A DNA stretch of 64,000 nt from Eledone cirrhosa (lineage: Eukaryota), in NCBI GenBank assembly GCA_964016885.1, contig OZ024740.1, positions 22,568,001-22,632,000 of the forward strand. The letters are read 5' to 3'. The number at the start of each line of letters is the position of its first letter. Position 1 is the stretch's first letter. The notes below the pieces were generated by a model. That model was given only the letters and a program-made list of their open reading frames with translations. It was not told the DNA's origin and ran no database searches. Both the position numbers and the translations under genes were made by a program. Below are positions 10,169-42,887 of this stretch, piece after piece.

Positions 10169-10262
10169 ACCCCGACAGCTGAGCTCAAGCCGTTTCGACG
10201 GCTAATTCTGGACTAAATGAAAATTTATCCTGGTATTTAAATAGCCGATCTTCTCAAGGGGT
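10169..10262 (-). ncRNA. Type-I hammerhead motif with U3:A8 core (UUGAGAA)
   Basis: ACCCC-UUGAGAA-GA(U)CGGCUAUUU...AAUUAGCCGUC-GAAACGGCUUGAGCUCAGCUGUC|GGGGU. Confidence 0.75.
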
Positions 10263-11169
10263 AGTTCCATATATGGTCAAAGTGATTGTCAAAAATCAGT
10301 AGTAATTCTGTGGTTGCAAATTAGTAGGGGAGATGGTGGCTAAACCTGCCAGTAGGAGAAAGAGGGGAGGGGTGGAGTAGACCCAATCAAGCGTTGGTAG
10401 TGCCAGCTACAGCTGGACATGAGGTCAAAGAAGATACAGGGGAGGGGGAGGAGGAGGAAGTCGGAACGGTAGGTAGAACAATGGGGGGTAGAAATAGGAA
10501 AGAAAAAATACTGAGAGTGAAGAAAAGAAAATAAGTGTAAAGAAAAAAGTAAAGTAAATTAAATTTTACGACCTAGGTGTCAGGCTATTGTTAGGCTAGA
10601 ATAAAATAAAGAAAGAAAGAAAGAAGTAAAGAAATAAATAAATAAATAAATAGCGAAATAAGTAAAAGAACTAGGTGGGACGGAATAGGCAAGGACCCTT
10701 TTAAGAGGTGTAAGTACACATGTATATATATATATATATATATATATATATATACCCTCTCTGTTGGTTAGGGGTTAGTGTGGGGTTTCCATCCAGGTTC
10801 CGGTCATTTAACTGTGTCAAAATAAAGTGATGCAAAATGATATATTGAAAAAACATCGTCTCTTCGGTCTTTCGATTAACACCCTCCAGTGTATATATAT
10901 ATATATATATATATATATATATATATGTATATACTGTCTATATGTATATATATACATATGTATATATATATATATATATATATAATTATATATATATATA
11001 TATATATATATATATATATATATATGCATGCATGTATGTATATATGTATGGATATGTCTGTATGCCTATATGAATATATATATATATATATATATATATA
11101 CACACATATATATATATATATATATATATAAATACACACACACACACACGCACACACACACACATATAT

Positions 11170-14100
11170 ATATATATATATATACTGTATATATATATAT
11201 ATATATATATATATATATATATATATACTGTATATATATATATATATATATATATATACTGTATATATATATATATATACTGTATATATATATATATATA
11301 TACTGTATATATATATATATATATACTGTATATATACATATATACTGTATATATATATATATATATATATATACTGTATATATATATATATATATATACT
11401 GTATATATATATATATATATATATACTGTATATATATATATATATATACTGTATATATATATATATATATACTGTATATATATATATATATACTGTATAT
11501 ATATATATATATATACTGTATATATATATATATACTGTATATATATATATATATACTGTATATATATATATATATATACTGTATATATATATATATATAT
11601 ATATATACAGTATATATATATATATACAGTATATATATATATATATATATATATACAGTATATATATATATATATATATACTGTATATATATATATATAT
11701 ATACAGTATATATATATATATATACAGTATATATATATATATATATATATATATACAGTATATATATATATATATATATATATATATACAGTATATATAT
11801 ATATATATATACAGTATATATATATATATACAGTATATATATATATATATATACAGTATATATATATATATATATATACTGTATATATATATATATATAT
11901 ATACTGTATATATATATATATATATATATACAGTATATATATATATATACAGTATATATATATATATATATATACAGTATATATATATATATACTGTATA
12001 TATATATATATATATATATACAGTATATATATATATATACAGTATATATATATATATATATACAGTATATATATATATATATATACAGTATATATATATA
12101 TATACAGTATATATATATATATATATATATATATATATACAGTATATGGTTAAGAGAGTGGGACTGGCTCTGTGCAATGCCTTTGCTCACTATAAAAGCT
12201 TCATGGCACAGGCATTGCTTTATATCTGGAGATCTCTGCACTTGTCACATGGTACCATGGGCCCAGGACTATGTGTCAATAATTGTCACAAGTGTAGTGT
12301 TTGTACCAGAGTTATCAAGTCGCTGGCTGGACTCAAAAGTCACACTCATTCAGCGCATCGGTAGGGGTTCTCCTACATGGATATAAAGTAGTGGCCGTAC
12401 TCGAAAACGAGTTGGCAGCCACCATATATATACAGTATATATATATATATATATATACAGTATATATATATATATATACAGTATATATATATATATATAT
12501 ATATATATATATATACAGTATATATATATATATATACAGTATATATATATATATACTGTATATATATATATATATATATACAGTATATATATATATATAC
12601 AGTATATATATATATATATATACTGTATATATATATATATATATATACAGTATATATATATATATATACTGTATATATATATATATACTGTATATATATA
12701 TATATATATATATACAGTATATATATATATATATATACTGTATATATATATATATACTGTATATATATATATATATATATATATACTGTATATATATATA
12801 TACTGTATATATATATATATATATATATACAGTATATATATATATATATATACAGTATATATATATATATATACTGTATATATATATATATATATATACT
12901 GTATATATATATATATATATACTGTATATATATATATATATATATATATACTGTATATATATATATATATATATATATATATTGTATATATATATATATA
13001 TACTGTATATATATATATATATATATACTGTATATATATATATATATATACTGTATATATATATATATACTGTATATATATATATATATATACTGTATAT
13101 ATATATATATATATACTGTATATATATATATATATATATATATACTGTATATATATATATATATATATACTGTATATATATATATATATATACTGTATAT
13201 ATATATATATATATATACTGTATATATATATATATATATACTGTATATATATATATATACTGTATATATATATATATATATATACTGTATATATATACAT
13301 ATATATATATATATACTGTATATATATATATATATATATACAGTATATATATATATATACAGTATATATATATATATATATATATACAGTATATATATAT
13401 ATATATATACTGTATATATATATATATATATATATACAGTATATATATATATATATACAGTATATATATATATATATATATATATATACAGTATTTATAT
13501 ATATATATATATATATATATATATACAGTATATATATATATATACAGTATATATATATATATATATACTGTATATATATATATATATATACAGTATATAT
13601 ATATATATATATACTGTATATATATATATATACTGTATATATATATATATATATATATATACAGTATATATATATATATACAGTATATATATATATATAT
13701 ATATACAGTATATATATATATATATACTGTATATATATATATATATATATATACAGTATATATATATATATACAGTATATATATATATATATATACAGTA
13801 TATATATATATATATATATATATATACAGTATATATATATATACAGTATATATATATATATATATATATATATACAGTATATATATATATATATATACAG
13901 TATATATATATATATATATATACAGTATATATATATATATATATATACAGTATATATATATATATATACAGTATATATATATATATATATATATATATAT
14001 ACAGTATATATATATATATACAGTATATATATATATATATATATATACAGTATATATATATATATATACTGTATATATATATATATATATATATATATAG

Positions 14101-14404
14101 TATATATATATATATACAGTATATATATATATATATATATATACTGTATATATATATATATATATATATATACAGTATATATATATATATATATACTGTA
14201 TATATATATATATACTGTATATATATATATATGCTGTATATATATATATATATATATATACTGTATATATATATATATACTGTATATATATATATATATA
14301 TATATATATACAGTATATATATATATATACTGTATATATATATATATATATATATACTGTATATATATATATATACTGTATATATATATATATATATATA
14401 TATA
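11170..14404. repeat. (TA)nCTG/(TA)nCAG compound satellite, ~3.2 kb
   Basis: TA runs punctuated by CTG or CAG, in mixed orientation. Confidence 0.95.
12146..12424 (+). mobile_element. 3' end of an RTE-clade LINE
   Basis: Terminal C2H2-like motif [23 protein letters not shown]; short 3' UTR with CTCG-AAAA-CGAG hairpin running into TA repeats. Confidence 0.65.
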
Positions 14405-14805
14405 CGACAGTGGAAGTGAACTGGTGGCACCGGAGATGTTTATGAGATATTTCACAAGATGGAGGGAAAAAAAGAGGTTCATCTGTAACATGTATTGGTG
14501 TTATTGAGATATACACTTAATTCGCCTAAACAAATCTATCTGTGCATGTGGGTGTATATATATATATATATATATATATATATATATATATACATATATA
14601 TATAAATATATATATATAAATATATATACATATATATATATATATATATATATATATATATATATATATATATATATATATATATACATATATAAATATA
14701 TATATATATATATATATATATATATATATATATATATATATATAAATATATATACATATATATATATATATATATATATATATATATATATATATATATT
14801 TATAT

Positions 14806-40725: not shown

Positions 40726-41387
40726 TATATATATATATATATATATATATATATATATATATATATATATATTCGTGTGTGTGAGTGTGTGATGAAGTAA
40801 ACACAGACACGCTAAAAACTAAAAGACACTAAAATTCGTTTCAGTTGAGAGACATGAAAATTATGACAAACAATGACAGGAAAGAAGACAAAGAATAGTT
40901 TTGGACGTTTATCAAAAAAGTTAGCGGAAGTGAATAGGTATTTCAGGAAATTATAATATAATGACTAAGATGTGTTCATAACAAAACAAGTTAAGGCTAT
41001 AGTTGAAATTGGTCTCATCGACTGTAAAACGTGATACAACACTTTTCAATTAATATGATGCACACAAACATTTCATTGCAAAGATAGAACTATATATATA
41101 TACATATATGTACATACTATATATATATATATATATATATACACACACACACACACACACACACACACACACACACACATATATATATATATATATATAT
41201 ATATATATATATATATATATATATATATATATATATATATATATATATATATAATAAATATATATATATATATATATATATATATATATATATATATATA
41301 TATATATATATATATATATATATATATATATATATATATAGATGTTACACCTCTATTCTTTTAAATATATATATATATATATATATA

Positions 41388-42275
41388 CATTTCGTTTCTG
41401 AATTTGTTTAGCAAAATTCTTTATCTGAAAACGTGTGTTGAAACCGATATTGTTATACTTTGGGAGGGTCATGTTGCCAATAAGGAACACACGCACCACA
41501 GCTTTCACTTCAATTTATTATAAATTAAATTTATAAATTTAGGAATTTATAAATTTCCGGTTGGTTGGTTCCACAACCAGATGATTGTTCATATATTGTC
41601 AAAGTTCTTTCGTCACACATTCTGTGACCTCTTCAGTGACTGGGGATTCTTTACTTTGTTTTTGTGCCTCTCCTTTGTTCTGTCCTACGCTATCTTGTTT
41701 TTGTGTGTGTTGTGTGCTTAGTTTGCGCATGTGTTACATCCGGGTGTCTGTGTGTGTTTATATTTGTTTATTTATATGTTACTGGCTGGTTGTTTGTTCT
41801 ATGTGTGTGTGTGTTTTCATTTTGTCCTTAACTGTAAGTTGTGATGTTGCTGTTCCATTCATGTTTTCTATTTAATTTTGGTTGGAATTCATTTATGTTT
41901 ATTGCCTCTGTGATTTGTCTACACATTGCGTCTTTTCTGTGTGTAGATTCTATTTTTATTTCTATGTTCTCTAATTTACCCTTATGTTCTATTTTAGTAT
42001 GTTGGTGGAGTACAGATGATTCTTTACTATCTTGAAGATCTCGCCAGTGTTCATTTATCCGTTCCCCTATACTACGAGCTGTCTCACCTATGTACACTAT
42101 ATTCTTATCTCTACATTGTCCTTCAGTACATCTCATGCTATATACTACATTTCTAGTTTTACAGTTAATAAGGGGGCTTAATTTACAGATTATACATTTC
42201 TTATCCATACAGAGATGTCTTTGAAAAGGGCATGTCTTGCTAATAAGTGTTTTTATGGAGGTACCAGGTACTTTT
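41388..42275 (-). mobile_element. Truncated PLE of a third endonuclease type (possibly Nematis-like) with HHR at 41598-41640
   Basis: CKTRNVVYSMRC...YIGETARSIGERINEH...RQITEAININ...LNRKHEWN (41828-42289). Confidence 0.88.
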
Positions 42276-42339
42276 TTGATGCTTATCAAAGCTAACTATT
42301 CCCAACTACTCCTCCTGTTTGCTTAATTAATTTAATATT

Positions 42340-42887
42340 CAGCAAACAGGGGACATAAGCATCATTTGATAAGCATAAAAAAATGCGAAACAGAGCTCTG
42401 TCAGCTTTATCTCCCCTGTTTGCTGAAAATTAAAGTAAGTGAGACTGTCACTACTCTAAAACAATAGCATAAGGTCTTCGAAATGCTTTTAATTAAGCAT
42501 ACAGTGCATTGCAAAATACACTATATATACATTCATATATATAGCGCTATTTCAGAGCACCAATTCTAATTTTCCATATCTGCTTGACCGGCAACCGCTC
42601 TGTATAATCAGTTCCTGATTATTACTAGAATTCTATAAGAATCAAACATTCATGATTTTCAGCAAACAGGTGGAGTACTTGGCTTTGATAAGCATAAAAA
42701 ATGCGAAACAGAGCTCTGTCAGCTTTATTTCCACAGTTTGCTGAAAATTAAAGTAAGTGAGACTGTCACTACTCTATAACAATAGCATAAGGTCTTCGAA
42801 ATGCTTTTAATTAAGCATACAGTGTATTGCAAAATACACTATATATACATTCATATATATATCGCTATTTCAGAGCACCAATTCTAA
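42340..42887 (+). mobile_element. 318-bp tandem retrozyme-like unit (~1.7 copies) with U3:A8 HHRs at ~42362-42406 and 42681-42724
   Basis: GGCU-UUGAUAA-GCAU-A5-AUGC-GAAACAGAGCUCUGUC|AGCU; predicted cleavage sites 318 nt apart. Confidence 0.78.

Follow-up and report, generated by a model that had tools for sequence, protein, structure and literature searches.

Hammerhead motifs carrying U3:A8 in place of C3:G8 in non-coding repeats of an Eledone cirrhosa locus

A 64,000-nucleotide (nt) stretch of Eledone cirrhosa DNA (contig OZ024740.1, positions 22,568,001 to 22,632,000; hereafter the window) holds repeats in which UUGANAA stands where a hammerhead ribozyme has its CUGANGA core, raising the question of whether U3:A8 has taken the place of the C3:G8 pair in true hammerheads, or whether these motifs are inert, decayed or assembled by chance. 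The exchange was found to be real and compensatory, and to be family-wide in family B, the one family examined in sequencing reads. We consider it highly probable that the motifs are type I hammerheads with U3:A8 for C3:G8, predicted to cut at GUC and placed in non-coding repeats likely derived from the pseudo-long terminal repeats (pLTRs) of Penelope-like elements, of the kind known as non-LTR retrozymes (LTR, long terminal repeat). Judged from its sequence, the variant likely still self-cuts as RNA.

Variant cores and their chance level

The initial annotation of the window had listed five variant cores, each with stem II, GAAAC, a palindromic stem III and GUC. All five were located, together with a third family B copy of UUGAUAA that had been overlooked, and their positions are as follows.

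10157-10268, minus strand: family A type I hammerhead, core UUGAGAA at 10257-10251, assigned by sequence anatomy and fold
21247-21336, minus strand: family D hammerhead in a nearby inverse copy, core at 21331-21325, with one difference in 180 nt from the copy at 22217 and not independent of it
22212-22301, plus strand: family D hammerhead, core UUGAUAA at 22217-22223, the weakest of the three families
42335-42654, plus strand: family B unit 1 (B1), core UUGAUAA at 42366-42372, 319-nt spacing, predicted cut 3' of C42402
42655-42888, plus strand: family B unit 2 (B2), partial, with an intact hammerhead, core UUGAUAA at 42685-42691, ending in (TA)n
42268-42323, minus strand: diverged 5'-half copy of family B, UUGAUAA at 42289-42283, head to head with unit 1 and without GAAA and helix III

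Downstream of the core, all five listed motifs had stem II, GAAA-C, a helix III insert complementary to itself, and GUC; the palindrome claimed for stem III held for families B and D, whereas the 17-nt insert of family A is only near-palindromic. The hammerhead elements N3-U4-G5-A6-N7-N8-A9, G12-A13-A14, A15.1:U16.1 and H17 at a three-way junction were likewise present in 5/5, and so was complementarity of positions 3 and 8 as U3:A8, the tertiary pair itself being taken from a published structure as far as its available text describes it (PMC3884650). As the core at 21331 is an inverse copy of that at 22217, and those at 42366 and 42685 are tandem copies, the evidence amounts to three families and not to five events.

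A strict descriptor that left positions 3 and 8 free returned 16 hammerheads across the window, 11 with C3:G8 and 5 with U3:A8, and no match for the other 14 N3/N8 classes, including the single-change U3G8 and C3A8. This agrees with the earlier proposal that the double change at 3:8 is compensatory. Bare 7-mers of all 16 classes occur in the window (10-65 each), with UUGANAA the commonest class at 65 sites; in 200 local dinucleotide shuffles the strict U3:A8 pattern arose 0.055 times per window (maximum 1). Because the strict descriptor was written after the hits were already known, two further descriptors were run. A relaxed descriptor gave 22 C3:G8 and 6 U3:A8 matches at a score of at least 10, with 4 others against 7.0 expected by chance, and at a score of at least 13 matches with non-Watson-Crick 3:8 combinations lay at background (3 against 1.8 expected, all classes). 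A helix-III-anchored descriptor, in which position 4 was also free, gave 25 matches (19 C3U4G8, 3 U3U4A8, 1 C3C4G8 and 2 of background type) against a shuffle mean of 1.03 in all, and dropped family A and the B1 copy. In total the window holds about 28 hammerhead motifs in about 12 families. The U3:A8 share, which as the initial annotation had predicted is missed by searches restricted to CUGANGA, comes to 5/27 full cores and to three of the roughly 12 families. Searches of that type undercount hammerheads of this kind and continue to be made; the core-motif screen described by Craig et al. 2021 used 'cuganga'.

Reads, folds and layout of the three families

Family B was examined in reads by aligning 4 of 19 listed runs to 42571-42888 at 80% likeness, families A and D lying outside this test. 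The runs came from four studies with three species labels: X1 (4277 contigs), which may share the window's own source, X17 (9698 reads), X5 (36 contigs) and X6 (13 contigs). Stem positions beside the core varied at 42-73% in reads. In X17, where depth over the core was about 880 reads, two stem II pairs showed paired changes, C42693U (361/644) with G42703A (416/723) and U42695C (470/644) with A42701G (421/710), and in helix I the change G42681A (419/873) turns a G-U pair into A-U, so that the pair is kept. In X1 the two stem II swaps were found on a single molecule, a loose-end consensus of 18 contigs in which GAAAC and helix III come next without change. Among the 40 of 188 variant rows listed, each of which has a share no lower than 0.46 in one or more runs or read directions, none fell in 42684-42692 or 42704-42728, which span the core, GAAA, helix III and the cut site; the share threshold is inferred from these rows, and the counts are unphased and reference-biased. 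As no listed variant falls in the core, U3 and A8 are the majority state in family B reads. One X6 contig has a family-B-like helix I followed by CUGA, with position 8 not visible, which shows that C3 relatives of family B exist. Joints reaching back 299-318 nt were present in all four runs, indicating that the family B unit is tandem; with two units in the window as well, family B is a non-coding tandem with one type I hammerhead in each unit.

Within B2, helix I has 4 base pairs (bp) and a long distal stem, stem II has 4 bp and the helix III insert is a 10-nt palindrome, with a predicted cut 3' of C42720. As a monomer its hammerhead fold lies 2.7 kcal/mol above the minimum, compared with 3.1-8.1 kcal/mol for the canonical hammerhead copies of the window. 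Cofolded with itself, B2 formed a double hammerhead in which a 12-bp helix III joins the two molecules and both cores are unpaired, as did the canonical family C. In B1 the proximal helix I is broken, with 1 pair left, and the hammerhead fold lies 6.1 kcal/mol above the minimum.

The best motif of the three families is that of family A, in which the minimum-energy fold is the hammerhead (ddG 0), helix III is stable alone and both cores stay open on self-cofolding. Helix I has 5 bp and a distal 5 bp, stem II has 2 bp, a bulge and a further 6 bp under a long loop, the predicted cut is 3' of C10174 and (TA)n adjoins directly. Helices I, II and III thus form with helix I open in the folding of A and B2, and stem II has in addition the covariation in family B reads. 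Five other family A loci in the window lack the core.

20700-20904: family A fold-back derivative with only the 3' half of the hammerhead, without core, from repeat comparison
14806-14996, 25663-25709, 38920-39067 and 57455-57635: further core-less family A copies, from repeat comparison
21016-22384: insertion of family D, two partial tandems of a 593-nt unit placed head to head, with (TA)n on the flanks

All five core-less family A derivatives begin inside loop II or the 3' strand of stem II, and three are full fold-backs turning in loop II. The inversion axis of family D, at 21673-21675, also lies within loop II, that of the first hammerhead of the right arm, with 1.1-1.2 units per arm. The loop II starts of the family A derivatives and of the family D right arm (21673) suggest that reverse transcription stalled at the stem of the hammerhead or was primed by snap-back. 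The family D hammerhead has a long bulged stem II and an 8-nt palindromic helix III insert, with a predicted cut 3' of C22296.

The initial annotation had called these at least three unrelated families. Their flanks are indeed dissimilar (z -0.7 to 1.3 among A, B and D), but stem II is built in an uncommon way in both A and D, where 2 bp are followed by a pyrimidine bulge on the 5' side and by GGC/GCC. On this sequence likeness a shared ancestor of A and D is possible, and the data do not establish three separate origins.

Weighing a working hammerhead against its alternatives

The reading of these motifs as U3:A8 hammerheads in retrozyme-like repeats is based on the core anatomy, on the tandem and head-to-head layout beside (TA)n and on the U3:A8 majority with compensated stem II in family B. 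The context counted in its favour comprises the 22 canonical hammerheads, GIY-YIG fragments, head-to-head inversions and (TA)n flanks of the window; partial tandems with an inverted, 5'-truncated copy and a (TA)n target were found for B, C, D and the family A derivatives, and head-to-head inversions and (TA)n flanks are among the features described for Penelope-like elements (PMC8557442). As modelled, family A would fold as a hammerhead alone, whereas the palindromic helix III of a family B copy would pair with that of the next to give a double hammerhead. By analogy with the unit-length cutting and trans-mobilisation model set out in the available parts of PMC4209133, PMC7229834, PMC6765202 and bioRxiv 10.64898/2026.07.22.740005, the last of which describes animal retrozymes as related to pLTRs, transcripts through the tandem would be cut after GUC to unit length (319 nt for B), the resulting RNAs may be ligated to circles, and a Penelope reverse transcriptase (RT) with its GIY-YIG nuclease could copy the units and insert them in trans. 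With a U:A pair the tertiary 3:8 geometry by which residue 8 is placed for catalysis would be retained, and catalysis would probably be slower. B1, D and the core-less family A derivatives are likely decayed or inert.

Several observations weigh against this reading. No coding partner was detected in the window for A, B or D, and comparison of these families with the flanks of the window's Penelope open reading frames (ORFs) gave nothing beyond low-complexity matches of z 3-4. Family A has a single core-bearing copy in the window and family D a single independent one. The helix I of D has 4/5 pairs (one mismatch), its hammerhead fold lies 7.5 kcal/mol above the minimum and the minimum-energy structure of its self-cofold is not a hammerhead; as the canonical family E fails the same cofold test, this test is not decisive for D. 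B2 scored 20.5 bits against HH9 (RF02275; E 0.016), below the gathering score of 52, and families A and D had no Rfam match at E<=10. Because the canonical copy at 43791 also falls under the gathering score (32.9 bits), the Rfam hammerhead models (clan CL00010) fit this repeat class poorly; the whole window gave 375 Rfam matches, and among the 150 listed nearly all were microsatellite miRNA artefacts and one was a hammerhead (HH9, a canonical copy). As 40 of the 188 variant rows were listed, a C3:G8 minority in family B may reach about 45%. Of the published Penelope hammerheads, those in PMC4209133 are reported to cleave weakly in vitro, and for an Anolis Penelope element cleavage is reported to have required protein and to have been dispensable for insertion in vitro (PMC11167929). 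In the same element single changes at 3 or 8 abolished cleavage, and a G3:C8 swap partly restored it.

The in vitro insertion result for Anolis also bears on a rather improbable alternative, in which the U3:A8 cores, though descended from hammerheads, have ceased to cut, and a variant dead or nearly so was amplified passively since cleavage is not needed for retrotransposition. That five of six family A loci were copied without a core, and that helix I is damaged in B1 and D, would fit such passive amplification. The behaviour of family B, which keeps the core, GAAA and helix III while two stem II pairs swap compensatorily, is however hard to obtain without selection on the fold, and the double change is found in three families with no single-change core.

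The absence of single-change cores from the strict matches also speaks against an origin of the variant by decay of CUGANGA hammerheads through separate C-to-T and G-to-A changes in a genome rich in AT; such decay should yield mostly singles, and we regard it as the least probable explanation. Both changes are transitions toward AT and are the commonest kinds in reads (in X17, C>T at 36 places and G>A at 25), and the X6 contig with B-like helix I and CUGA does attest to a C3 relative, but neither position 3 nor position 8 lies within a CpG in these cores, and U3:A8 is present in 3/3 family B copies of the window and in most reads. Decay of family B from CUGANGA is unlikely, as about 880 reads keep the U3/A8 majority while stem II changes compensatorily; the consensus of this family, the sole one examined in reads, is thus not the CUGANGA with random decay that the initial annotation had named as the finding that would overturn its proposal. 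That some of the motifs, D above all, arose where a common AT-rich 7-mer happened to lie upstream of half a hammerhead is very improbable. UUGANAA is the commonest 7-mer class, such a 7-mer acts as a decoy in the distal helix I of another repeat family (family X, below), and the hammerhead fold of D is not its minimum-energy fold; on the other side, the D 7-mer abuts a stem that closes exactly at GAAA, helix I pairs at 4/5 and no other core was seen before GAAA. The low shuffled frequency of U3:A8 given above also speaks against chance, and from the fold of A and the reads of B these two families cannot be chance.

Known variants, helix III length and the neighbourhood

A specialist would be unsurprised by the variant itself, as it has been in print since 2011 and 2014, and the novelty implied by the initial annotation falls away. 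Perreault et al. 2011 (PMC3088659) describe natural U3-A8 covariation in several examples and state that such covariants are active in vitro, and Cervera and De la Pena 2014 (PMC4209133) published a descriptor for U3-A8 Penelope hammerheads, reporting U3-A8 for C3-G8 in the Penelope-like element Cercyon of Schistosoma with about 1,300 descriptor matches. The motifs described here show the same compensatory C3-G8 exchange as the variants of Perreault et al. 2011, in what is available of that paper, but characterise entire repeat families of high copy number, which share a genome with C3:G8 families. As in the Schistosoma mansoni Cercyon hammerheads, whose UUGAUAA and UUGAAAA cores are given in supplement file 2 of PMC4209133, they have a U3-A8 core, type I topology, a self-complementary 15.2-16.2 region, predicted action as dimers and nearby opposite-strand copies. 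Cercyon hammerheads are minimal motifs in which A9 is followed by an extra base and the inserts are apparently 2 nt (machine-read alignment), whereas those of the window have no extra base, helix III inserts of 8-17 nt, a family (A) that can fold as a monomer and no attached coding element. The bulged helix II base, palindromic helix III and short helix I of A and D are also features of the Drosophila virilis and shrimp Penelope hammerheads (PMC4209133), the shrimp example having a C3:G8 core and a 2-nt insert and the Drosophila insert being given as 2 nt in the text available. Animal non-LTR retrozymes, as described in the available parts of PMC7229834 and bioRxiv 10.64898/2026.07.22.740005, resemble B (319 nt) and C (311 nt) in being non-coding, low-GC tandem units of about 300 nt with one type I hammerhead each; the families here differ in the U3:A8 core, in the 593-nt unit of D and in the single copy and fold-back derivatives of A. 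What the read-level covariation contributes is confirmation of U3:A8 as a stable family-level hammerhead state in animal Penelope-type repeats, and what may be of further use is a related pair of families with different cores together with a possible link to a longer helix III.

That related pair consists of B and a canonical family further along the window.

51143-53455: family C, eight identical C3:G8 hammerheads in 311-nt units, four per strand, head to head at 52302

Outside the ribozyme, B and C are 75% identical over 178 nt (z 40), and the CUGAUGA of C aligns with the UUGAUAA of B. The eight units of family C are 100% identical, and we conclude that it is a very young retrozyme-like insertion. 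Family C sequence was also observed in high-depth contigs of runs X5 and X6.

In nine C3:G8 hammerhead groups (eight canonical and one U4C) the helix III inserts are 4-6 nt, compared with 8, 10 and 17 nt in the U3:A8 families, which all have C15.2:G16.2 and GUC. A longer helix III in all three U3:A8 families has a rank probability of 1 in 220 if the groups are independent, a figure to be read in the light of the pattern having been spotted post hoc, the grouping being our own and some groups being related (B-C, E-J, perhaps A-D). The Schistosoma U3-A8 variants appear to have 2-nt inserts, contrary to such a coupling, and we think it unlikely that a real coupling of U3:A8 to a longer helix III exists. 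A similarly doubtful proposal is that the switch from C3:G8 to U3:A8 happened more than once in the retrozyme lineages here and was tolerated only with a lengthened helix III and GUC, which may in that case stabilise the fold and may allow cutting as a monomer; its basis is the presence of a C3:G8 sister family of B in the window and of a relative with C3 in a contig from another species. If true, the cost of a weaker core pair and its compensation could be read from families B and C as a naturally matched pair. No paper linking U3:A8 to helix III length was found in a search that covered few subscription papers and left out supplement file 1 of PMC4209133.

Further candidates for the variant core in the window were rejected. 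The initial annotation had tentatively placed a fourth motif on the minus strand, where no hammerhead-compatible arrangement was found and which all descriptors missed. The sixth U3:A8 match of the relaxed scan, UUGAUAA at 57864 (minus strand), is background, with a 1-bp helix I, no palindrome and a fold 7.7 kcal/mol above the minimum, and UUGAUAA at 40105 (plus) and 56545 (minus) has no hammerhead-compatible fold. A putative fourth U3:A8 family at 45446 and about 58680 (minus) proved to be a decoy 7-mer in distal helix I, the true core being CCGANGA (U4C).

44922-45023, minus strand: tentative fourth motif, core 45019-45013, rejected, no compatible fold
58670-58629 and 45434-45393, minus strand: CCGANGA-core hammerheads, 2 pattern occurrences against 0.06 by chance

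The CCGANGA repeat family (45260-45462 and 58496-58697, two copies 80% alike) has C3:G8 intact, and in its copy at 58670 (minus) stem II is 8 bp, GUC is present and helix I is long. U4C is named as a viroid variant in the accessible text of PMC3088659; seen here at the level of a whole family of Penelope-type repeats, it may merit separate study.

GC content is 35-40% over most of the window, which has long tracts of (TA)n type and carries an endonuclease-RT ORF of a long interspersed nuclear element (LINE) and several GIY-YIG and RT fragments. From this content the genome would be that of an animal with many Penelope-like elements. From domain order, we take the window's ORFs to be of C-terminal-nuclease types. 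A GIY-YIG fragment (PF01541) beside family B has its own C3:G8 hammerhead at 41636, and at 41400-42330 (minus) this C-terminal GIY-YIG fragment, with the 41636 hammerhead, is fused straight to an inverted half-copy of B, possibly a template switch revealing the element that mobilises B. The idea that the motifs are the missing hammerheads of Naiad, suggested by the available text of PMC8557442, was dropped as no linked ORF was found. In exact-pattern scans the family A and B patterns were absent from metagenome contigs and the family D pattern from viral contigs.

Penelope-type ORF remnants on the minus strand lie at 46004-49851 between 1-kb inverted repeats that are 99.5% identical, and a simple scan found no hammerhead core in the downstream repeat. 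The nearly intact two-ORF LINE at 3567-8635 (minus), with endonuclease and RT domains, has tandem repeats of 72-73 nt on either side, at 2953-3329 and 8955-9263. A long inverted repeat at 56776-57434, with tRNA-like matches at 56922-56993 (minus) and 57260-57331 (plus; Rfam tRNA 40-42 bits), is probably a tRNA-derived short interspersed nuclear element or a fold-back element.

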